A DNA stretch of 64,000 nucleotides from an uncultured Verrucomicrobiae bacterium (GTDB taxonomy: Bacteria > Verrucomicrobiota > Verrucomicrobiia > Chthoniobacterales > JAFAMB01), in assembly GCA_963813025.1 (NCBI GenBank), contig CAWEXO010000014.1, positions 32,001 through 96,000 of the forward strand, written 5' to 3'. Below are positions 3,730 through 37,688 of the stretch, one piece after another; within the stretch, counting starts at the first letter, position 1; the number at the start of each line of letters is the position of its first letter. Position numbers and translations under genes: made by a program. A model generated the notes under the pieces. The model was given only the letters and a program-made list of their open reading frames with translations, made no database searches and had not been told where the DNA came from.

Positions 3730-4782
3730 ATGGACTTCATTGTGGTCGGAATTGGTCGTTGGGGCAGAGAGTGGGCTGAACTCTTGCAGGCTCACCCGCT
3801 CGCCTCGGTGGCGTCGACCGTCGACGTCAGCGAAGCAGCCGCCAAATGGTCACAGGAAACTCTTGGAATTCCTTGCTTTCCGAGCCTAAGGGAAGCTATC
3901 GAAAAAGCGCCGGCGGATGCTGTGTTAGTGGTCACCAATCCTGGCCAGCACAAGCCGGTCGTTCTGGAAGCGCTTCGCTACGGAAAACATGTGTTGGTTG
4001 AGAAGCCGATGGTAACTTCGATTGAGGAAGCCGACGAGATTGCGGCTGCGGCCGAACGTTCAACCGGTAAGGTCATGACTGCTCAAGGTTACCGATTCCT
4101 ACACTCTGCTGGTTTCATTCGCGAACAGCTGGCTGCTGGCGTTATTGGCGAACTGAAGGGCGTCAAGGTCCGGTTCCGGCGCCACGTACCTGATCTCATT
4201 GCCAATCCCGAACATCCAATCTTTGCTCTACCACATTCCATCCTTCTCGATATGTCGGTCCATCATTTTGATCTCCTCCGTTACATGACTCAGCTGGAGG
4301 CTATCAGTGTGGTAGCGATGGAGCATGACACTCCGGATAACGCATTTAAGCATCCTTCCAACGCGATCTGTTTCGTTCGGCTGCGACAAGACGTTCCTGT
4401 CGTATGGGACGGAGACTGGTGCGCTCGTGGACCTGTGACTTCATGGGAAGGCGAGTGGCAGTTCATCGGCAATAGAGCACGCCTGTTTTGGGAAGGGAAT
4501 ATAGATGGAAAAAACCTGACTTCGGTCCAGTTGGAGGTGCCAGGAGAAAAACCACAGAAACTCCTGGCACACGAGCCGATTTGGGAGCGACGCCTTCCCG
4601 TCTTGGAACACTTTATTAAGAGCATTAAGCGGGGCAAACAACCGGAACCTGGTGTTCTTGATAACCGAAAGACACTTGCCATCGTGTTTGGCAGTCTGGA
4701 GTCGTTGGTTACGAAGGCCGAGGTCCGGCTGGAAGATAGTGCTCCCGCACACAGCTCTTTCCGGCCGGAACTTCTGAAGTGA
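3730..4782 (+). CDS. Gfo/Idh/MocA family oxidoreductase
   Basis: VVGIGRWG Rossmann motif, GKHVLVEKP, DMSVHHFD. Confidence 0.92.
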   Translation: MDFIVVGIGRWGREWAELLQAHPLASVASTVDVSEAAAKWSQETLGIPCFPSLREAIEKAPADAVLVVTNPGQHKPVVLEALRYGKHVLVEKPMVTSIEEADEIAAAAERSTGKVMTAQGYRFLHSAGFIREQLAAGVIGELKGVKVRFRRHVPDLIANPEHPIFALPHSILLDMSVHHFDLLRYMTQLEAISVVAMEHDTPDNAFKHPSNAICFVRLRQDVPVVWDGDWCARGPVTSWEGEWQFIGNRARLFWEGNIDGKNLTSVQLEVPGEKPQKLLAHEPIWERRLPVLEHFIKSIKRGKQPEPGVLDNRKTLAIVFGSLESLVTKAEVRLEDSAPAHSSFRPELLK

Positions 4783-4985
4783 ACCTGGATTCTCCGAAAA
4801 GCCTTGGTTGACGCTGTATGGTGGTCTGCAGGCGATCAAGCGTACGTCGTGCCCCCTTGTTAACTTGCCAGAGAAAAGACCCTGGTTCCGGCGCCAAGGA
4901 ATTAGGTCCGCAGTGATGAAGCGGTGCCATTGGGTTGAACCTATGAGCCTGTGCTGGTTTGCCCAAATCAAGTTCACCGAATGGA

Positions 4986-5220
4986 CTCCTAAGAAACTGG
5001 ATAAGGCCGGTCAAATAAAGTTAGCTCTTCCTCGCCAAACAGCCCCAATGAGAACTGGATGGTTTCTTGCCGCAACAAGAACCGCAGCGGTTCTGGCGAA
5101 CTCCTAAGAAACTGGATAAGGCCGGTCTAATAAAGTTAGCCTTCCAAGAGCCAAACAGCCCCCAATCGAGAACTCGGATGGTTTCTTGCCGCAACAAGAA
5201 CCCGCAGCGGTTCTGGCGAA
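4986..5220 (-). repeat. Two tandem miniature IS110 derivatives (115 and 120 bp)
   Basis: Units 4986-5100 and 5101-5220 each start CTCCTAAGAAACT (IS110 right end) and finish with ~40 bp closely matching the IS110 left end at 6874-6914. Confidence 0.85.
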
Positions 5221-5223
5221 CTC

Positions 5224-6615
5224 CTAAGAAACTAAATCCGTGGCTGGGTCTAGAGGCGTGAGTTGGAGTCCGAATTCTTTGGCTCGTCGGCTGAGATTGT
5301 GAAGTAGGCGGTCTTTGTATTTTTTCTCGTAGTAGAGTTGCCCTTGCTCGACATAGGCAGCTCCGAACTTGAGCATGCGATAGAACAAGCGTGCCAGTTT
5401 ATGAGCTCCGGCGTTGATGGCGGTGGGTGCCCCCAATCGGGCTTTGATGCGGCGGATAAAAGCGCCGATGGCCGTCTTACTTTGCATGGCTCCTTGGGCC
5501 GCCAGCCGGAACATGGCCGCCGCGCGATTCTTGGTTTTTCTGGGGCTGGAACTGAGCAGTTTGCCGCCACTGATGCGATTGTCCGGACAGAGTTTAAGCC
5601 AGGAGCAAAAGTGTTTTTCGCTTTTCCAACAGTTCATGTCTAAACCCGTTTCCGAAATGATGACTTCCACCGCCAAGGTGCTCAAGCCAGGCAACTGACT
5701 CAGATCGACACCACAAACGCTGGCCAGATGCGCTCGGCGCTGCAGGGCTAGGCGAACTTGGGCCGACCGTGCTTTGGCCGCCCCGCTTTGCTCGAGGGCT
5801 TGCTCCAAATCTAGTTTAGTGTCGAATTGCTCAAGTTGTTGCTCAATCTTGCTTTCGCAGGCGGTGATCTTGAGCTGGTAGGTGTCATAGAGTTCCAGGG
5901 CCGTTTGCAAGGCGAAGAGATGCTCGGCTCGGTAATCTCCCTGTAAGGCTTTGACGATCTGATCAGTGGATGCTTTCACTTGGGGGTGTTTCATCTGGGC
6001 AAGCTTGAGCGGATTGCGTTCTCCGGCCAAAATCGCCCGAATCATCGCCATGCCACTATAACCGGTGATGTCGCTCAACACGCGGTGCACTTGGATATTC
6101 ATTTCGGTTAAGGCCTTCTGCATGCGTAACACATGGCTGCTGCAGTCCTTAACCAAGGTGTCGCGCAGGCGCAGGAAGCTGCGCAAGACGCAGACCTCGT
6201 CCTTGGGTCGGAACGAGCCGTTTAAAAGACCAAAGGTGTGGAGTTGTTGAAGCCATTGGCAGTCCGAGACGTCGCTTTTGCGTCCAGGCAGATTCTTGAC
6301 ATGAGCTGCGTTGACCAATTTTACCTCCAACCCTCTCTGCTCCAGAATCTGGAACACCGGTATCCAATAAACCCCCGTTGATTCCATCACTACGGTCTCA
6401 ATGTGGTGTTCGCTCAGCCAGTCAGCCATCCGCTGCAGATCGCTCGTAAAAGGGCCAAACTTGCGCACCGTTTCTGAGCCGCGGTCTTCGGGAATGGCCA
6501 CCAGGTGAAAATTCGCCCCGATATCGATTCCTGCGGCCTTGAGATTGATCCGTTCCAGAACACTCCGGTGAGTTTTTGATTTGTTCTTTCGCTTGGTCGT
6601 GGTTTTCTTTGCCAT
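5224..6615 (-). CDS. IS110 family transposase/recombinase
   Basis: DEDD motifs AAGIDIG, VMESTGVYW, RKSDVSD; C-terminal CPDNRISGG serine motif. Confidence 0.96.
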   Translation of the reverse strand: MAKKTTTKRKNKSKTHRSVLERINLKAAGIDIGANFHLVAIPEDRGSETVRKFGPFTSDLQRMADWLSEHHIETVVMESTGVYWIPVFQILEQRGLEVKLVNAAHVKNLPGRKSDVSDCQWLQQLHTFGLLNGSFRPKDEVCVLRSFLRLRDTLVKDCSSHVLRMQKALTEMNIQVHRVLSDITGYSGMAMIRAILAGERNPLKLAQMKHPQVKASTDQIVKALQGDYRAEHLFALQTALELYDTYQLKITACESKIEQQLEQFDTKLDLEQALEQSGAAKARSAQVRLALQRRAHLASVCGVDLSQLPGLSTLAVEVIISETGLDMNCWKSEKHFCSWLKLCPDNRISGGKLLSSSPRKTKNRAAAMFRLAAQGAMQSKTAIGAFIRRIKARLGAPTAINAGAHKLARLFYRMLKFGAAYVEQGQLYYEKKYKDRLLHNLSRRAKEFGLQLTPLDPATDLVS

Positions 6616-6914
6616 ACCTCTCTTGGGTTAGATGTTGTTCTTGCTTTCACACTGCAGCGCATCGGCCCGAGTTGGTAGATAGAGAGAAATCTCCTAAACA
6701 GGATAGCTCCAGATCGGCAAACAACCCGATCTGGAGCTTCGCTAATGCAACAACCAAAACGCTCGGAACCAAACTAGCTATCGGGCATAAAGCTCCAATG
6801 CCACACCGGTCTTAACTGCCGACCCACTGCTGCCTACTTTCTACGTCGAGATGCCCAAGGCAATCAATCCAGTGTTTCTTGCCGCAAAAAGAACGCGCAG
6901 AGTTCTGGGGAACT
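6616..6914 (-). ncRNA. Putative IS110 bridge RNA region (left non-coding end)
   Basis: Structured end with 13-bp perfect hairpin and a loop containing TTAGGAG and AACT that match the element's own end junction. Confidence 0.6.
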
Positions 6915-7056
6915 AAGCCTGTAGCGACGGCCAGTTGCGGTCTGCGCGTCTTCCTGCGGCGGCGAGGGGACGAAAAAGGCAATGGAGGTCGTTTCACGGT
7001 AATACTCGTTCTGTCGCAATCCGCTTGGTTCGAACTCAAGCACTAGCCGCCTAATC

Positions 7057-7235
7057 GGAACTGCTCACCTGGTCTGGAAGCGCGTCAAATAGGCAAATCA
7101 TAGAGGAGGTTCAGACCAGAACTATACCAAGCCGTGGAGATGGTTCTCCGGGGCGGAAAGACAGTCAGGGAAGTGGCTGAAAATCTTGGGGCAAGCCAAT
7201 ATTCGAGCGGCTATTATCAATGGGTGGAGCGGCGG
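7057..7235 (+). pseudogene. Degenerate IS3-family OrfA remnant
   Basis: GGAACTGCTC start like IS3 IRL; fragments AVEMVLRG / TVREVAENLG of an HTH_Tnp_1-like protein. Confidence 0.45.
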
Positions 7236-12051: not shown

Positions 12052-12385
12052 CTAATGCGCCGTCTCATATATAACGATGACGTCGCCGCAGGTCAGTTGG
12101 CTGTTTTTCAAGGCGCGGTCCGAGCCGGACTGGCAGTAGAAGCGTCCATATCTGGATTCATACGGATCGAGGTCCGAGCCGGACTGGCGAAAGCAACGCC
12201 GAAAAACAGCCGACTGGCCGCGGCCCAAAGGGTTGCGTTGAAAATGGGCCGGCGGCGGGGTTGCTCCTCGGTCACGTATCGCTTCAGATATGCTCCCTCC
12301 TACTGCCAGTCCGGCTCGGACCGCCTTGCCGGCGGCCCATTTTGAACGCAACGACATCATCGGTAAATATGAGACGGTGCACTAG
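12052..12385. mobile_element. MITE (non-autonomous), copy 1
   Basis: Terminal IR TGC(A/G)CCGTCTCATAT, CTAA/CTAG ends; homologous inverted copy at 19862-20145. Confidence 0.85.
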
Positions 12386-13511
12386 TACTTAGTTGCTTTA
12401 GTTCTTTATATTTATGAAAAATTATGATTTGTTGGATGGATGGCAACGGGTCGCATCAAACTTTCTGTGGAAAACCGCAAGCTCTTGGAGGGTTGGAGTC
12501 GAGCGCAACGGGTCGAACACCGGCTCAAGGTCAGGAGTCAGATTATCTTGAAGGCGGCAGCGGGCTTGAGTGGACGTGCGATTGCCAAGAGCCTGCGCAT
12601 TCCCGAGGTGACGGTGAGTAAATGGCGGCGGCGCTTTGTGCGCCAAGGCCTGGCTGGCTTGGAAGACGCGCCACGCAGTGGAAAGCCGGCCAAGTATGAT
12701 CAAATGACGGTCAAGCGGGTCTTGGCGCTGCTGGATGAAGATCCACCGGCGGGCTACGGGCGCTGGAATGGGCGACTGCTGGCGCAGAGTCTGGCCGATG
12801 TTTCCTCCGATCAAGTCTGGCGCATTTTGCGCCAACAAGGCATTGAATTGGAACGGCGCCGCAGCTGGTGCATTTCCACCGATCCGGAGTTTGTGCGCAA
12901 GGCCGCTGACATTGTCGGTCTTTATCTCAATCCGCCCCAGAATGCGCTCATCTTGGCCATTGATGAAAAACCAGCCATTCAAGCCCTGGAAAGAGCCCAA
13001 GGTTGGATTCGCTTGCCCAATGGCAGGGCGCTGACGGGTTTTAGCCACGAGTACAAGCGCCATGGCACCTCCACTCTCTTTGCCGCCCTCAACATTGCCA
13101 GCGGCCAAGTGCAGGCTGGTCATTACCGGCGCCAGCGCCGACGGGAATTCCTGGAGTTTATGAACCAGGTAGTTGCCGGAAATCTCGACAAAGAAATTCA
13201 TGTGGTCTTAGACAACCTTGCGACCCATAAGCCAAAGCAAGATCGCTGGTTGAAGGCTCACCCCAATGTGCATTTTCATTTCACTCCAACCCACGCTTCT
13301 TGGCTCAACCAGATTGAGATCTGGTTTAGTATCTTGAGCCGCCAAGCCCTCCAGGGGGCAAACTTCACCAGCGTGGCAGAGCTGCGCAACGCCATCGACA
13401 CCTTCATCAAGAACTACAATAACAATGCGGCTCCCTTCGAATGGACCAAATCCCAGGTACATCAGGGGAAAGTCGCCATACATATAACTAACTTACGCAA
13501 TTAGGCACTAG
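12382..13511 (+). mobile_element. IS630 family element A, copy 1
   Basis: CTAG-bounded 1130 bp with imperfect IRs; near-identical copy at 36387-37516. Confidence 0.92.
12440..13504 (+). CDS. IS630 family transposase
   Basis: N-terminal HTH, IDEK, YKRHGT, VLDN, SWLNQIE DDE motifs. Confidence 0.96.
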   Translation: MATGRIKLSVENRKLLEGWSRAQRVEHRLKVRSQIILKAAAGLSGRAIAKSLRIPEVTVSKWRRRFVRQGLAGLEDAPRSGKPAKYDQMTVKRVLALLDEDPPAGYGRWNGRLLAQSLADVSSDQVWRILRQQGIELERRRSWCISTDPEFVRKAADIVGLYLNPPQNALILAIDEKPAIQALERAQGWIRLPNGRALTGFSHEYKRHGTSTLFAALNIASGQVQAGHYRRQRRREFLEFMNQVVAGNLDKEIHVVLDNLATHKPKQDRWLKAHPNVHFHFTPTHASWLNQIEIWFSILSRQALQGANFTSVAELRNAIDTFIKNYNNNAAPFEWTKSQVHQGKVAIHITNLRN

Positions 13512-15389
13512 CCCTTAAGGAAGCGTGATTTAACCGCATGAGGGGACAAAAAAGCTCGAAATGTGCTTCGATGCTTGGTTTGCTGGGAAGTGCAAAGCTA
13601 ACCAGACCAAGGAAGAAAGGCATTTCGAGTGAGTAGAAGTTATCCGAAGATCCTGCGTAATCGCAAGCGCCGAATCGAACGTCGTTTGGATCCTGAGCGG
13701 CGATGGAGTGAACAGCCGACACCGATGCTGAGTGCCAGCAACATCCATTTTGAGATGGCTGAACGTAACCGGGCGGTAAACTACGGCGGTATTGGCGCGA
13801 TCCATCTAATGGGGCAGCGGCTAGGATTAGCCGAGGAGATCGATGGGCGGGTGCAGCTTCTCAAGCGGCATTTGCCCTATCACGAAAGCGATCATGTGTT
13901 GAACCTGGCCTACAATGCACTGTTGGATGGCCAACGGCTGGAAGATATCGAGTTGCGGCGCAACGATGAAGCTTTCCTGGAGGGTCTGGGCGCCCAACGT
14001 ATCCCTGATCCGACTACCAGCGGAGATTTTACCCGGCGCTTTGACCAAGGCTCGATTCTGGATTTGCTGGAAGCCATCAACACGACTCGGCAGCGGGTGT
14101 GGAAAAAGCAGCCTCGGGCTTTTCTTGCCCAAGCCTTTCTTGATATCGATGGCACAATGGCTCCGACTTTAGGGGAGTGCAAAGGCGGGGTAGGGCTTTC
14201 CTACAAAGGGATCTGGGGTTATGCGCCCTTGATTGTCTCGTTGGCAAACACCCGAGAAGTGCTTTATCTGGTTAATCGGCCGGGCAACGTCGTCAGCCAT
14301 GAAGGATGTGTGCCATGGATTGAGCGGGCCATCGAGTTGGTGCGCCCCCATGCCGGTGAGATCACGCTGCGCGGGGACAGCGATTTTACGCTCAGCGCCG
14401 AGTTAGATCGCTGGGATAGCCAAGGGATCAAATTTCTCTTTGGCATGGATGCTCATCAGAAAGTAGTGCAACTGGCCGAAGCCTTGCCGGAAGCAGGCTG
14501 GCAGCCGCTGGAACGCTTGGCTCGCTATGAAATTGCCACTGAGCCGCGACGTAAGCCCCTTCGGGTCAAGGAGGCAATTGTGCGGTTTAAGGGGTACTTG
14601 AACAAAAAGTTGGTGGGCGAAAGCGTGGCCGAGTTTAATTATCAGCCACTCAAATGCGGACGCAGCTATCGGCTGGTGGTGGTGCGCAAAAACATCAGCC
14701 TCCAGAAAGGGGAAACGGTGCTCTTGGAAGAGATTAGATACTTCTTCTATCTCACCAACCACACCAATTATCGGGCCCAAGAGATCGTGGCGCTGGCCAA
14801 CCAGCGTTGTGACCAGGAGAATGTGATCGAGCAACTCAAAAATGGGGTTAACGCCATGCGCATGCCGGTAGACGATCTCCTCAGTAATTGGGCTTACATG
14901 GTCATCAGTGCCCTGGCCTGGAATCTCAAATCCTGGTATGGACTGCTTATGCCCAATCGGCAAAGGGGGCTGGAGCTAGTCCAGATGGAGTTCCGGCGCT
15001 TCCTGCATGCCATTGTGTTGTTGCCGGCACAGATCGTGCGCAGCGGTCGGAGGATCATTTATCGGATCATGGGTTACAACAGTTGGCTAAAAGACTTCTT
15101 CGCTGCCTGGGAAAATCTTCGGCGGATGGCACCTGCCTGAAGCAGGCCTATTGACGATACTCTAGGCGGAACGCTCAAATTTCCAAGGCAGAGCTATGCC
15201 CTGGCGAGGCATGTATCGGCGCCCAAAATCGCACTAACTCCAAAAACTTTCATTGTTTTGGCCTGAGAAAAGCAAACCTGGGCCTTCGGTCGCCAGAACC
15301 AACCGGATTTGCACCATTTTCTAAGAATTTGCCTGGCCGAACGGGAAGTTCGTCGCGTCGCATTCGGAACTCGCTTATTTTGAGACTAG
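13508..15389 (+). mobile_element. IS1380 family element
   Basis: Imperfect IRs CTAGCCCTTAAGGAAGCGTG / CTAGTCTCAAAATAAGCGAG around the transposase. Confidence 0.75.
13629..15140 (+). CDS. IS1380 family transposase
   Basis: LDIDGT, LRGDSDF, RCDQENVIEQLKNG motifs. Confidence 0.93.
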   Translation: MSRSYPKILRNRKRRIERRLDPERRWSEQPTPMLSASNIHFEMAERNRAVNYGGIGAIHLMGQRLGLAEEIDGRVQLLKRHLPYHESDHVLNLAYNALLDGQRLEDIELRRNDEAFLEGLGAQRIPDPTTSGDFTRRFDQGSILDLLEAINTTRQRVWKKQPRAFLAQAFLDIDGTMAPTLGECKGGVGLSYKGIWGYAPLIVSLANTREVLYLVNRPGNVVSHEGCVPWIERAIELVRPHAGEITLRGDSDFTLSAELDRWDSQGIKFLFGMDAHQKVVQLAEALPEAGWQPLERLARYEIATEPRRKPLRVKEAIVRFKGYLNKKLVGESVAEFNYQPLKCGRSYRLVVVRKNISLQKGETVLLEEIRYFFYLTNHTNYRAQEIVALANQRCDQENVIEQLKNGVNAMRMPVDDLLSNWAYMVISALAWNLKSWYGLLMPNRQRGLELVQMEFRRFLHAIVLLPAQIVRSGRRIIYRIMGYNSWLKDFFAAWENLRRMAPA

Positions 15390-30781: not shown

Positions 30782-30919
30782 GAGCGTGAATGGGAGGGTA
30801 ATTGGTGGTTGGGGAATGGGGACGGGGAGAGGCAGAGGTTTACAAACTTTAAAATGCGCCCTCGCGATTGGCTTTGTCAATGGGTGAATTCCGGCGGGAG
30901 AGCCAGTGGCATTCGCAGT

Positions 30920-30978
30920 GCCAGTGCTAGTGCTAGTGCTAGTGTCAGTTGTCAGTTGTCAGTTGTCATCGGTCATCG
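30920..30978 (+). repeat. GCTAGT hexamer plus GTCAGTT/GTCATCG heptamer microsatellite
   Basis: Directly visible tandem units. Confidence 0.85.
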
Positions 30979-31074
30979 CCCCGACGGAGAGTTGTTCGCT
31001 GTTGCTTAACTTGAGCTCACGAGCGATTTTAATTCTCGACCCCCATTTAAGTAACCCTCATTCAAGGAAGCATC

Positions 31075-32208: not shown

Positions 32209-32332
32209 GTCGGTGCCGGTGCCGGTGCTAGTGCTAGTGCTAGTGCTAGTGCTAGTGCTAGTGCTAGTTGCCATCGCTCATCGCTCATCGGTCATTGGCC
32301 ATTCGCCAGTGGTAATCGGCCATCGGTCATCG
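32209..32332 (+). repeat. (GCTAGT)7 microsatellite with flanking degenerate hexamers/heptamers
   Basis: Seven perfect units at 32227-32268. Confidence 0.9.
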
Positions 32333-33239: not shown

Positions 33240-33241
33240 CT

Positions 33242-36200
33242 AGTTCCCCAGAACTCTGCGCGTTCTTTTTGCGGCAAGAAACACTGGATTGATCGCCTTG
33301 GGCATCTCGACGTAGAAAGTAGGCAGCAGTGGGTCGGCAGTTAAGACCGGTGTGGCATTGGAGCTTTATGCCCGATAGCTAGTTTGGTTCCGAGCGTTTT
33401 GGTTGTTGCATTAGCGAAGCTCCAGATCGGGTTGTTTGCCGATCTGGAGCTATCCTGTTTAGGAGATTTCTCTGTATCTACCAACTCGGGCCGATGCGCT
33501 GCAGTGTGAAAGCAAGAACAACATCTAACCCAAGAGAGGTATGGCAAAGAAAACCACGACCAAGCGAAAGAACAAATCAAAAACTCACCGGAGTGTTCTG
33601 GAACGGATCAATCTCAAGGCCGCAGGAATCGATATCGGGGCGAATTTTCACCTGGTGGCCATTCCCGAAGACCGCGGCTCAGAAACGGTGCGCAAGTTTG
33701 GCCCTTTTACGAGCGATCTGCAGCGGATGGCTGACTGGCTGAGCGAACACCACATTGAGACCGTAGTGATGGAATCAACGGGGGTTTATTGGATACCGGT
33801 GTTCCAGATTCTGGAGCAGAGAGGGTTGGAGGTAAAATTGGTCAACGCAGCTCATGTCAAGAATCTGCCTGGACGCAAAAGCGACGTCTCGGACTGCCAA
33901 TGGCTTCAACAACTCCACACCTTTGGTCTTTTAAACGGGAGATATTGTCAAAAGTTGTGTATCGGGGATGGGCGCATCCTTGTTAAAATGACTGGTTAGG
34001 CAGCTTGTTGGGTTTGTTCTTCGCCATCGACGAATCGGACACCAGTAACTACCTTTGGAATCAGTTCGAAGCCCTGAAGCCGGCGCCAATGCTTTTGGGC
34101 TTCCAGGCCGAGTTTAAAGACCATGGTCAGTGTTGCGATCCGTGAACCGGAACCCTTGGTTCGATGGGTTCGCAGCCGGACGGTAGCGAAGGTCGATTCG
34201 ATGGGATTGGTGGTCCGTAAATGCGGCCAATGTTGCGCCGGAAAGTCGTAAAAGGTAAACAGGACTTCTTTATCTTTCTGCAGGCATTCGCAGGCTTTTG
34301 GGAATTTGATTTGGTAACTGGAGATGAACTGATCGTAGGCTGCCAGAGCTGCTTTGCCGGTCGGCGCCAGGTACATTTCATGGATCAGTTGCTTGGCTTT
34401 GCCCTGAACGCTTTTGGGCATTTTATCCAGGATGTTGGCTGTCTTATGCACCCAGCAACGTTGTTGGGCGATCTGGGCCATATTCTTCCTGCAGAGCGAT
34501 CCAGAAGCCGAGCGAACCATCACCGATGGCCAGTTTCGGCGCGCCGGACAGCCCCAGGCGTTTGAGCTGCCCAAGCAGTTCACGCCAGGATTGAGCGCTT
34601 TCGCGATACCCGTCGACAACAGCTAACAGTTCTTTGGTGCCATCTTCGGTGGCTCCGATCAAGACCAGCACACAGGTTCGCTCTTCGTCGAGCCGGACGT
34701 TGAAATAGACTCCGTCGGCCCACCAGTAAACGTAACGCTTCTGACTCAAGTCGCGCTGACTCCAGGCCTTGTAATCTGCTTTCCCAACCCGCTCTTGAGT
34801 CGGACGATATTGGTTGCTGAAAGCCCACTGGCTCCTTCGCCCAAAATCGCTGTCAACGCTTCGCTGAAATCTCCGGTCGAGATCCCTTTCAGGTAAAGGG
34901 CTGGAATCAGAGCATCGACGCTGGGAGCCCGACGCATATACTTGGGCAGAATCGCACTGGAAAATCGACCCTTGTCACGATGCCGGACCCGTGGCTGACG
35001 AACTCGGATCGGACCAACTCCACTGACGACCTCCCGCTCCGGCAGATGTCCATTGCGTACCACCAACCGCTGTCCATTCTCATCCCGTCGATCCTTGTGG
35101 AATCTGGATATAGTCGATCACCTCATTCTCGATCGCCGCCTGTAACAGCTTCCTGGCTCCTTCTTGCAGCAACTGCTCCAGGAATGGCTTTTCTTCATCT
35201 TTTGCTCGCTCATCAAGCGAGACCACTTTACTCTCTGGCACTGGTGCATCCTTTCTTTTTGGCGCCCTCGAGTGAGGCCGCCGTCGTTTCTTTTTCTTGT
35301 TGAAAGGATGCGCCTTTCTTTTATCTCCTCATACACAAATTTCGGTTATACCTCTTTAAACGGCTCGTTCCGACCCAAGGACGAGGTCTGCGTCTTGCGC
35401 AGCTTCCTGCGCCTGCGCGACACCTTGGTTAAGGACTGCAGCAGCCATGTGTTACGCATGCAGAAGGCCTTAACCGAAATGAATATCCAAGTGCACCGCG
35501 TGTTGAGCGACATCACCGGTTATAGTGGCATGGCGATGATTCGGGCGATTTTGGCCGGAGAACGCAATCCGCTCAAGCTTGCCCAGATGAAACACCCCCA
35601 AGTGAAAGCATCCACTGATCAGATCGTCAAAGCCTTACAGGGAGATTACCGAGCCGAGCATCTCTTCGCCTTGCAAACGGCCCTGGAACTCTATGACACC
35701 TACCAGCTCAAGATCACCGCCTGCGAAAGCAAGATTGAGCAACAACTTGAGCAATTCGACACTAAACTAGATTTGGAGCAAGCCCTCGAGCAAAGCGGGG
35801 CGGCCCAAGCACGGTCGGCCCAAGTTCGCCTAGCCCTGCAGCGCCGAGCGCATCTGGCCAGCGTTTGTGGTGTCGATCTGAGTCAGTTGCCTGGCTTGAG
35901 CACCTTGGCGGTGGAAGTCATCATTTCGGAAACGGGTTTAGACATGACCTGTTGGAAAAGCGAAAAACACTTTTGCTCCTGGCTTAAACTCTGTCCGGAC
36001 AATCGCATCAGCGGCGGCAAACTGCTCAGTTCCAGCCCCAGAAAAACCAAGAATCGCGCGGCGGCCATGTTCCGGCTGGCGGCCCAAGGAGCCATGCAAA
36101 GTAAGACGGCCATCGGCGCTTTTATCCGCCGCATCAAAGCCCGATTGGGGGCACCCACCGCCATCAACGCCGGAGCTCATAAACTGGCACGCTTGTTCTA

Positions 36201-36361
36201 TCGCATGCTCAAGTTCGGAGTTGCCTATGTCGAGCAAGGGCAACTCTACTACGAGAAAAAAATACAAAGACCGCCTACTTCACAATCTCAGCCGACGAGC
36301 CAAAGAATTCGGACTCCAACTCACGCCTCTAGACCCAGCCACGGATTTAGTTTCTTAGGAG
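33242..36361 (+). mobile_element. IS110 element copy 2, interrupted by IS256
   Basis: Near-identical to copy 1; transposase split at 33938/35355 and +1 A in homopolymer ~36256-36262. Confidence 0.92.
33939..35354 (-). mobile_element. IS256 family element with frameshifted transposase
   Basis: IRs GAGATATTGTCAAAAGTTGTGTAT / GAGGTATAACCGAAATTTGTGTAT; 9-bp TSD TTTAAACGG; YLKGIST, WADG, GDG, QRCWVHK, RTTNPIES in different frames. Confidence 0.93.
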
Positions 36362-36386
36362 CCGTTAGCTGGCGCCAGTGCTAGTG

Positions 36387-37516
36387 CTAGTGCCTAATTG
36401 CGTAAGTTAGTTATATGTATGGCGACTTTCCCCTGGTGTACCTGGGATTTGGTCCATTCGAAGGGAGCCGCATTGTTATTGTAGTTCTTGATGAAGGTGT
36501 CGATGGCGTTGCGCAGCTCTGCCACGCTGGTGAAGTTTGCCCCCTGGAGGGCTTGGCGGCTCAAGATACTAAACCAGATCTCAATCTGGTTGAGCCAAGA
36601 AGCGTGGGTTGGAGTGAAATGAAAATGCACATTGGGGTGAGCCTTCAACCAGCGATCTTGCTTTGGCTTATGGGTCGCAAGGTTGTCTAAGACCACATGA
36701 ATTTCTTTGTCGAGATTTCCGGCAACTACCTGGTTCATAAACTCCAGGAATTCCCGTCGGCGCTGGCGCCGGTAATGACCAGCCTGCACTTGGCCGCTGG
36801 CAATGTTGAGGGCGGCAAAGAGAGTGGAGGTGCCATGGCGCTTGTACTCGTGGCTAAAACCCGTCAGCGCCCTGCCATTGGGCAAGCGAATCCAACCTTG
36901 GGCTCTTTCCAGGGCTTGAATGGCTGGTTTTTCATCAATGGCCAAGATGAGCGCATTCTGGGGCGGATTGAGATAAAGACCGACAATGTCAGCGGCCTTG
37001 CGCACAAACTCCGGATCGGTGGAAATGCACCAGCTGCGGCGCCGTTCCAATTCAATGCCTTGTTGGCGCAAAATGCGCCAGACTTGATCGGAGGAAACAT
37101 CGGCCAGACTCTGCGCCAGCAGTCGCCCATTCCAGCGCCCGTAGCCCGCCGGTGGATCTTCATCCAGCAGCGCCAAGACCCGCTTGACCGTCATTTGATC
37201 ATACTTGGCCGGCTTTCCACTGCGTGGCGCGTCTTCCAAGCCAGCCAGGCCTTGGCGCACAAAGCGCCGCCGCCATTTACTCACCGTCACCTCGGGAATG
37301 CGCAGGCTCTTGGCAATCGCACGTCCACTCAAGCCCGCTGCCGCCTTCAAGATAATCTGACTCCTGACCTTGAGCCGGTGTTCGACCCGTTGCGCTCGAC
37401 TCCAACCCTCCAAGAGCTTGCGGTTTTCCACAGAAAGTTTGATGCGACCCGTTGCCATCCATCCAACAAATCATAATTTTTCATAAATATAAAGAACTAA
37501 AGCAACTAAGTACTAG
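36387..37516 (-). mobile_element. IS630 family element A, copy 2
   Basis: Inverted near-identical copy of 12382-13511, inserted in GCTAGT repeats. Confidence 0.93.
36394..37458 (-). CDS. IS630 family transposase
   Basis: Protein identical to 12440-13504. Confidence 0.96.
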   Translation of the reverse strand: MATGRIKLSVENRKLLEGWSRAQRVEHRLKVRSQIILKAAAGLSGRAIAKSLRIPEVTVSKWRRRFVRQGLAGLEDAPRSGKPAKYDQMTVKRVLALLDEDPPAGYGRWNGRLLAQSLADVSSDQVWRILRQQGIELERRRSWCISTDPEFVRKAADIVGLYLNPPQNALILAIDEKPAIQALERAQGWIRLPNGRALTGFSHEYKRHGTSTLFAALNIASGQVQAGHYRRQRRREFLEFMNQVVAGNLDKEIHVVLDNLATHKPKQDRWLKAHPNVHFHFTPTHASWLNQIEIWFSILSRQALQGANFTSVAELRNAIDTFIKNYNNNAAPFEWTKSQVHQGKVAIHITNLRN

Positions 37517-37688
37517 TGTCAGTGCCAGTGCTAGTGCTAGTGTCAGTGCCAGTGCTAGTGTTGGTGCTGGACTGTGCCGCGGCCAGCTCACTGCGTTTCA
37601 CGGCGCTCCTGTCGGAGCTGGCAGCGCCGCAACACTGGCACTAGCCTGACACTAGCACTGACACTAGCACTCACACTAACACTGGCAC
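37513..37688. repeat. Inverted pair of G(C/T)(C/T)AGT microsatellite tracts
   Basis: GCTAGT-type units 37513-37562 and complementary ACTAGC-type units 37633-37688. Confidence 0.75.

Follow-up and report, generated by a model that had tools for sequence, protein, structure and literature searches.

Tandem gene-less units behind an IS110-family element of an uncultured Verrucomicrobiae bacterium, probable decayed copies of a 122-bp non-autonomous derivative

The window analysed here is a 64,000-nucleotide stretch of the draft genome of an uncultured Verrucomicrobiae bacterium (assembly GCA_963813025.1, contig CAWEXO010000014.1; G000:C14:32001-96000 in the numbering used below), and its subject is an insertion sequence (IS) of the IS110 family on the minus strand, together with two short, gene-less units, u1 and u2, which are docked directly behind it (Table 1). 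The assembly, G000, consists of 16 contigs with a total of 4.4 Mb and is about 80% complete. In the orientation of the transposase, the order is IS right end, u2 and u1, with no spacer between them and with a single AG at every IS/unit and unit/unit joint. The array and the IS interrupt a degenerate ATP-dependent DNA ligase paralogue of which a C-terminal remnant is left, and further paralogues are found at G000:C13:658387 (itself a remnant) and in G001:C5 (an intact open reading frame (ORF) of 324 aa, with PF01068 and PF04679).

Table 1. Features of the array, of the IS and of their surroundings, in window coordinates.
Feature	Position	Strand	Remark
Ligase remnant	4790..4985, continuing 6913 to about 7000 beyond the IS	+	paralogue matches
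Right target flank TCCATTC (IS orientation)	4979..4985	-	directly after the AG closing u1
Unit u1, 115 bp	4986..5100	-	39-nt left-end copy starting TTCGCC, ~60-nt middle, right end ...AGTTTCTTAGGAG
Unit u2, 120 bp	5101..5220	-	layout as u1
IS right end (left-donor arm and AG core)	5221..5233	-	...AGTTTCTTAGGAG; identical to the right end of each unit
IS110-family recombinase ORF, 463 aa	5224..6615	-	PF01548 and PF02371
Non-coding IS left end, candidate bridge RNA	6616..6912	-	predicted consensus fold with two multi-loop domains
Candidate left donor guide GUUUAGGAG	6691..6699	-	sense of right end ...TTAGGAG
Candidate left target guide GAUAGCUAG	6774..6782	-	sense of target CTAGCTAG; variants in relatives pair with matching left flanks
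40-bp left-end block, two overlapping palindromes	6873..6912	-	retained by units and micro-elements
Left junction: AG core (6914-6913) after left target flank ...CAGGCTT	6913..6921	-	4/8 guide match
Second IS copy, no units behind	33241..36361	+	split by another IS, frameshifted

Both units start with TTCGCCAGAAC... and finish with ...CCAGTTTCTTAGGAG. Their last 13 nt reproduce the end of the IS exactly and their first 11 nt its start, save for one change in u1/u2, with the first 39-40 nt being 87.5% alike to the IS left end, while u1 and u2 themselves are 91.7% alike over 121 columns, with indels (BLAST). The terminal 13-mer occurs four times in the window (0.02 occurrences expected), as does the left-end 21-mer with up to 2 mismatches (none expected). 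Only spurious ORFs cross the units, which carry a subterminal inverted repeat of 7-8 bp (AAGAAAC/GTTTCTT) and no terminal inverted repeats. Tandem Repeats Finder reported nothing for positions 4500-7200, probably because there are just two copies, which differ by indels. A sequence-only reading of this DNA had described two internally diverged units of 115 and 120 bp abutting the right end of the IS, with a middle unrelated to the IS, joints recreating a right end-AG-left end donor junction and a second IS copy devoid of such units. This description holds: the two units can be read directly in the sequence, their ~60-bp middle has no match to any IS copy by BLAST at word size 7 and E up to 10, the joints of IS/u2/u1 each carry one exact AG, and the second copy is followed on its right by CCGTTAGC.

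The IS itself can be delimited precisely. Its 463-aa recombinase matches PF01548 (E 6e-20) and PF02371 (E 5e-7), both beyond the curated cut-offs, and is distantly matched by the IS621 transposase (8wt6, E 2.8e-5); the features of the IS110 group, namely N-terminal DEDD RuvC-like and C-terminal Tnp domains, site-specific insertion and a lack of terminal inverted repeats, are all present. There are 13 copies in the assembly, nine of which are uninterrupted and at least 99.6% identical, with one further copy at 98.7%, one variant at 87.8% (ISb) and two copies interrupted by other elements, among them the second copy in the window; the window copy has 3 private changes in 1692 nt. The flanks of all 13 copies diverge exactly before TTCCCC... 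and after ...TTAGGAG. On the left, the flank ends in AG in every case (13/13), in TAGCTAG in 8/13 and in CTAGCTAG in 6/13, and on the right the flanks are mutually unrelated, with all 13 copies ending in AG. A paralogous empty site, CTAACTAG/CCAAGGGC... (CTAACTAG/CCAAGGGCTTCGCCC..., with the slash marking the insertion point), matches both flanks of occupied copies, the AG being the only part common to the two flanks, and no target duplication beyond AG is found there. The boundaries, the flanks and the empty site thus define an IS of 1692 bp with an AG core, with insertion guided almost entirely by the target's left half. This target is scarce: in the 4.4 Mb there are 12 CTAGCTAG sites, whereas the base composition predicts about 64, and at 7 of these 12 sites an element is adjacent.

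A BLAST search of the assembly returns three further units, which are 122 bp long and mutually identical, and in which the terminal 13 nt and initial 11 nt of the IS are both reproduced without change. One is a solo copy (C13:343107-343228) with the flanks ACTAGCTAG/.../CGTTCAC, and two form a head-to-tail dimer (C14:104508-104751) that lies outside the window, between the flanks GCTTAGCTAG/.../AAAATCAG, with no IS nearby; the units of the dimer are 100% identical and both donor arms are kept. Both the solo unit and the dimer are found at the target of the IS itself, i.e. CTAGCTAG or TTAGCTAG followed by AG. The left 40 nt of the 122-bp units are nearer to those of the ISb variant (2 mismatches) than to the main IS. 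Compared with this canonical unit, u1 is 92% and u2 98% alike, the latter with a 2-nt deletion, and both share a C-to-G change at left-end position 4 which is absent from every other copy. This change sits in the arm that the RNA should read, so that u1 and u2 are probably immobile now, and in combination with the indels it suggests that they are decayed copies and likely fossils.

An occupied counterpart of an empty site is observed in public reads, which were available as short Logan contigs from one soil-metagenome run (X1, share 0.38), the one DNA run found, no RNA run being listed. In one contig, with a depth of about 2, the right end of a canonical 122-bp unit continues into 30 letters identical to G000:C12:132735-132764, and the joint (G000:C12:132765) lies exactly after AG. 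The same site is an empty CTAGCTAG in the assembly, and the unit is therefore polymorphic for insertion at its cognate target. No contig from this run covers window positions 4588-5057 or spans the window array.

Related short elements are present in the wider family. A pattern of a left end followed by a right end within 30-115 nt, applied to 401 genomes of the order, matched G000, four more genomes of the same family and one genome in which the match is probably due to chance. The short elements of the relatives are either minis of 114-126 bp, which are homologous to the G000 unit and align with it over their full length, or micros of 57-59 bp, in which no more than 4-6 nt separate the 40-nt left block from the right end; a BLAST search of 40 other relatives did not find the full 122-bp unit. 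One relative, G052, contains 16 left ends, and one of its arrays (L013; G052:C42:54000-66000, minus strand, at about 57230-60800 in contig coordinates) reads CTAACTAG/57-bp micro/1696-bp IS/1696-bp IS/120-bp mini/CCGCC, with the two ISs differing solely at nt 1693, where G or A decides between a TTAGGAG and a TTAAGAG right end. The remaining arrangements in G052 are micro/mini at two loci, mini/mini and six singles, the last including two identical 58-bp micros at different loci. By tblastn, no transposase remnants lie within about 600 bp of the TTAGGAG-flanked sites of this genome. The mixed arrays of G052 show exact right end-AG-left end joints, and because unlike elements are joined so exactly, replication slippage is not their source, which points to site-specific recombination. 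In a metagenome contig (L069), CTAGCTAG is occupied by a 123-bp mini close to the G000 unit, and a related IS follows this mini immediately.

The sequence-only reading had gone further in proposing that the units are non-autonomous passengers of the recombinase, of which copies with precise AG boundaries would be found elsewhere and arrays in relatives. The solo unit and the dimer at the target of the IS, the occupied as opposed to the empty C12 site, and the homologous minis and micros of the relatives, often in head-to-tail arrays, bear this proposal out, with the 463-aa enzyme as the presumed agent of mobilisation in trans. In about half of the 8 micros in G052 and G022, the two sides of the subterminal inverted repeat have changed in concert (AAGAAACC..GGTTTCTT versus AAGGAACC..GGTTCCTT), which hints that pairing or symmetric binding matters. 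Outside the phylum, four matches to the junction pattern in the genome contig collection were set aside, as they are without left-end features and about 4 are expected by chance from simple arithmetic on the information content of the pattern and the size of the collection.

The non-coding left end of the IS contains candidate guides for both target and donor. In bridge RNAs, the left guides carry the top-strand sense including the core, according to the original description (PMC11208160). The two candidate guides end at the outer boundaries of the element, and in a consensus fold predicted from ten left ends they would lie on the 3' sides of loops in two domains, the closing stems of which covary. 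The guides also vary in step with the sequences that they should read: the target guide AUAGCUAG goes with CTAGCTAG flanks and AUAACUAG with an CTAACTAG flank (L059), and relatives with right ends ...TTAAGAG have the donor-guide variant GUUUAAGAG, or the donor guide UUUAAGAG in the sub-lineages ISc and ISd. A match to CssrB in Rfam (E 0.38) was discarded, since it is no better than chance and lies antisense to the RNA.

ISc (in G052) and ISd (in the metagenome contigs L068, L069 and L083) differ in their first guide, which is AUUAGGAG or CUUAGGAG, that is (A/C)UUAGGAG, the right end of the family. At all three metagenome loci with a left flank (L068, L069, L083), the left neighbour ends in TTAGGAG, and of the nine G052 elements with a TTAAGAG right end, six stand behind TTAGGAG, two behind TTAAGAG and one behind CTAACTAG. 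ISd, with the guide CUUAGGAG, directly follows an end ...TTCTTAGGAG at L069:1833-2253, L068:2100-2500 and L083:1880-2240, and the element ahead of it is a mini in two of these contexts and a different IS110-family IS (504-aa ORF) in the third. The ISc/ISd donor guide (UUUAAGAG) is one base off the target guide of the same elements. These correspondences suggest, as a tentative proposal to which we give somewhat less than even odds, that the target guide of the ISc/ISd sub-lineage (CUUAGGAG or AUUAGGAG) has become set to the family right end plus core, that the elements home onto the right ends of their siblings so that the arrays are programmed rather than an accident of half-matching, and that the 57-59-bp elements, with about 40 bp of left block and 13-17 bp of right end, are mobile and represent a natural minimal donor. 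Double-stranded circles of 57-59 bp are sterically implausible, so that mobility of these elements, if true, argues for single-stranded or non-circular transfer.

For the window array, the reading that we favour, with a probability of roughly 0.7, is that the IS110 element gave rise to a 122-bp non-autonomous derivative, moved in trans and stacking via joints with an AG core, of which u1 and u2 are old copies that have decayed. The derivative would keep what is needed in cis, i.e. ~40 bp of the left end (right-donor arm and palindromes) and ~13 bp of the right end (left-donor arm), with a diverged middle of ~65 bp and no gene between the retained ends, and the 463-aa DEDD/serine recombinase and the bridge RNA from the IS left end would be supplied in trans. 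The left target guide AUAGCUAG would select CTAGCTAG, the left donor guide UUUAGGAG would read the common right end, and exchange would take place at the AG core. To judge from their anatomy and from the behaviour of the element ISPpu9 (discussed below), movement in trans by recombinase and bridge RNA is most likely, and the units would be expected to be excised and to form circles. After insertion, each end would keep one guide-matching arm (the left target-AG by the left end, the right end-AG by the flank), and a joint between two elements would be a complete donor site (right end-AG-left end), such that re-use of joints and half-sites for landing or exchange would lead to a head-to-tail pile-up; arrays probably grow because the ends of the elements keep these guide-matching half-sites.

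In G000, the target guide mismatches the right end and no ISc/ISd-type guide is present in the assembly, and stacking would therefore have to use the leftovers of insertion, presumably the target half at the left end, the right-end half at the flank or the whole donor site at a joint. Because CTAGCTAG sites are few and largely filled, and the right half of the target counts for little, occupied sites may plausibly be used again, and the dimer at a good target (C14:104508-104751) fits such re-use. Recombination at half-matches has been reported for IS621 (bioRxiv 10.64898/2026.08.31.748434), and a tolerance of half-matches has been inferred for natural IS110 loci (bioRxiv 10.64898/2026.08.14.744561). 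As regards the order of events in the window, u1 (92%) is more decayed than u2 (98%) and the IS is nearly unchanged, a gradient that would fit left-side growth in which the IS came last, though the units may instead have docked onto an IS already in place.

Several observations weigh against this reading. The window left flank AGGCTTAG matches the target guide at only 4/8 positions, which makes the locus an off-target site, explained less well by re-use of a kept target half. The C-to-G change shared by u1 and u2 is better accounted for by local copying or duplication than by independent arrivals. The insertion polymorphism is seen in one low-depth contig and at its right junction alone, and an exception to the guide/flank correspondence is found in L076, where the guide AUAGCCAG stands next to the flank CTAGCTAG, a mismatch of 1 nt. 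Neither a right target guide, a right donor guide nor handshake bases could be located from the fold, and no bridge RNA family in Rfam was matched at E up to 1. At 0 of the 31 metagenome loci listed is a left end found behind an ISa-type right end, and although short contigs may hide such joints, stacking is thus not frequent for the ISa lineage. In addition, the assembly is only about 80% complete.

Among the other explanations, one holds that one unit transposed in and that the second arose without a recombinase, by slipped-strand mispairing or unequal crossing-over between right-end repeats of 13-15 bp. Such a local event would account for the C-to-G change at position 4 that u1 and u2 have in common with no other copy, and a unit docked behind the IS is indeed bracketed by identical 13-mers; the dimer at C14:104508-104751, in contrast, has no adjoining IS, so that a solo unit at this site would be bracketed by AG alone, and the micro/mini and micro/IS/IS/mini arrays of G052 contain exact core joints between unlike elements, which cannot be the product of duplication. 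We consider this explanation unlikely, and marginally more so one in which the arrays were built elsewhere and moved as composites via their outermost ends, be it as a dimer circle or as IS+u2+u1 in one piece. The identity of the two dimer units, the non-canonical target inside the ligase remnant at which the window array lies, and the circle of IS plus passenger that ISPpu9 is reported to form (PMC12288879) are all consistent with composite transfer, which would account for the movement of an array and not for its first formation; moreover, the genome is without a second IS+u2+u1 or a second TTCGCC-type unit.

The guides of the relatives raise the further prospect that the G000 arrays were built by an ISc/ISd-type element, the target guide of which reads the family right end (CTTAGGAG), and which has since been lost or escaped assembly. 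Guides of this type do exist in relatives, exactly behind TTAGGAG ends, all joints in G000 are of the form TTAGG-AG/left end, and the assembly is about 80% complete; this remains a rather improbable scenario, given that the motif TTAGGAGTTTGG has 0 matches in the G000 assembly and that the G000 units end in TTAGGAG, not in the TTAAGAG that the ISc/ISd donor guide reads. Least probable by a wide measure is that the units are not derivatives at all but a repeat of the repetitive extragenic palindromic (REP) type that is targeted by the IS, as IS110-family elements often target REPs (PMC12288879), or that the array is an artefact of assembly, for which the lack of any contig spanning it could be cited. 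The similarity of the units to the IS lies inside the IS boundaries, for which empty sites and the unrelated flanks of 13 copies leave no latitude, and both guides end at these outer boundaries; u1 is unlike u2, and both are unlike all other copies, which neither collapse nor duplication during assembly would produce.

Tandem gene-less IS110 units are already in print (PMC12288879; bioRxiv 10.64898/2026.08.14.744561). The closest parallel is ISPpu9 of Pseudomonas putida KT2440, an IS110-family element accompanied by a miniature inverted-repeat transposable element (MITE), MITEPpu9, in which a gene-less module (the ssr9 module) is enclosed by near-copies of two blocks of the IS, on the left the A box of 43 bp, which contains an inverted repeat, and on the right the B box of 16 bp (PMC12288879). 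MITEPpu9 has an AG core, is docked right behind the transposase gene, and also occurs solo at the IS target and in tandem in sister strains (PMC12288879). The units described here resemble it in keeping both end blocks of the IS (40-nt left, 13-nt right) without a transposase, in having copies away from the IS at its target and with the same core (solo and dimer), and in being docked behind the transposase gene with one AG shared (IS/u2/u1 in the window, IS/mini in G052). They differ in their host, which belongs to another phylum, and in their target, which is CTAGCTAG and not a REP. Circles that depend on the transposase are reported for ISPpu9, for its MITE and for the two combined (PMC12288879), whereas for the window units they are a prediction; the circle-type junction (right end-core-left end) is here found in chromosomal arrays as well.

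A further difference from MITEPpu9 concerns expression. MITEPpu9 carries an expressed small RNA (sRNA) gene, ssr9, complementary to an antisense RNA of the IS (PMC12288879), whereas no sRNA gene is evident in the units of 115-122 bp, and the relatives hold still smaller forms of 57-59 bp. The suggestion of the sequence-only reading that the units yield small RNAs accordingly finds no support: the units fold no better than shuffled sequences (z-scores from -0.8 to +0.6), on which ground a structured small RNA was set aside as unsupported, and a promoter scan found no promoter-like sites in the units or at the right end/left end joints.

The second published precedent is a preprint by Hu et al. 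(2026), in which tandem non-coding units are reported to adjoin IS110 transposases in 468 cases and their growth is ascribed to re-use of donor half-sites and a lack of target immunity (bioRxiv 10.64898/2026.08.14.744561). The window array resembles these cases in that non-coding units abut an IS110 module. At its unit boundaries, that survey found hardly anything but left-donor matches, 'complete donor pairs' being 'essentially absent' (bioRxiv 10.64898/2026.08.14.744561); in contrast, both donor arms are found at every boundary here, and units also occur solo at the canonical target. The arrays of the survey comprise at least 2 units of at least 50 bp with at least 95% identity (bioRxiv 10.64898/2026.08.14.744561), and at 91.7% identity u1 and u2 would be missed by its 95% threshold. 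With IS621 (PMC11208160, PMC11208158), the present IS shares a recombinase with DEDD and Tnp domains, a 2-nt core common to donor and target and a non-coding left end in which candidate guides have the same sense as the left target and the left donor, each with its core, but the core is AG rather than CT, the protein has 463 aa rather than 328, and the predicted position of both sense guides, 3' in their loops, is a further difference.

Classical bacterial MITEs have terminal inverted repeats and generate a target-site duplication. The units are like them in being short, gene-less and present in multiple copies, and presumably also in their dependence on a transposase in trans, and are unlike them in lacking terminal inverted repeats and any duplication beyond AG, and in a site-specific insertion that would be RNA-guided. 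What sets the present case apart is how small the elements are, the presence of both donor arms at every boundary and, in relatives, the 57-59-bp forms and the guides that correspond to the right end of the family itself. A literature search returned no description of the element, of the 57-59-bp forms or of a target guide directed at the right end of its own family, which is no proof of absence.

The array and its relatives provide a second and phylogenetically distant natural case of an IS110 recombinase with gene-less passengers, and a graded natural size series of 1692, 114-126 and 57-59 bp. This series would delimit the needs in cis to a left part of about 40 bp and a right part of 13-17 bp, similar in size to the boxes of ISPpu9 (43 and 16 bp), and such limits would be useful when a minimal donor is to be designed for a bridge recombinase. 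Natural data on the re-use of occupied sites, whether by half-matching or by guides directed at the family's own end, are furthermore provided by the mixed arrays and the guide/flank pairs of the relatives, which bears on off-target behaviour and on the growth of IS110 loci. For the host, the array is ordinary selfish DNA in a dead ligase fragment. In the one other genome of the genus, a search for the orthologous site in its empty state matched only ligase paralogues, the locus not being conserved there.

Other mobile DNA is seen in the window as well. The element that interrupts the recombinase gene of the second IS copy lies at 33939-35354 and is flanked by a TTTAAACGG repeat, and an insertion with like ends is found in a metagenome relative (L089). 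A perfect inverted repeat of 1136 nt (12380-13515 and 36383-37518), probably represents two copies of another mobile element, one of which lies 22 bp away from the second IS110 copy, on the side of its right end.

A conserved, hairpin-bearing sequence, CTAACTAG CCAAGGGCTTCGCCCTTGATATCCGTTCCGG, is a recurrent insertion site in two genera and one metagenome contig, being found at G000:C9 at about 35567 (minus strand, empty), in the right flanks of the ISs at C13:324363 and C14:332937, and in G052:C2, G052:C36 and L069, and constitutes a small REP-like target family; its palindrome directly 3' of the core recalls the palindrome of the IS left end. Tracts of TAGTGC/CAGTGC-type hexamers adjoin insertion sites in the window (30902-30981, 32221-32300, 36365-36395 and 37512-37591) and flank the IS at G000:C9:93860, and similar GTAGCCA repeats flank the G052 elements on C9 and C21. 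Repeats of the hexamer type beside insertion sites may be a source of TAGCTAG-like targets.

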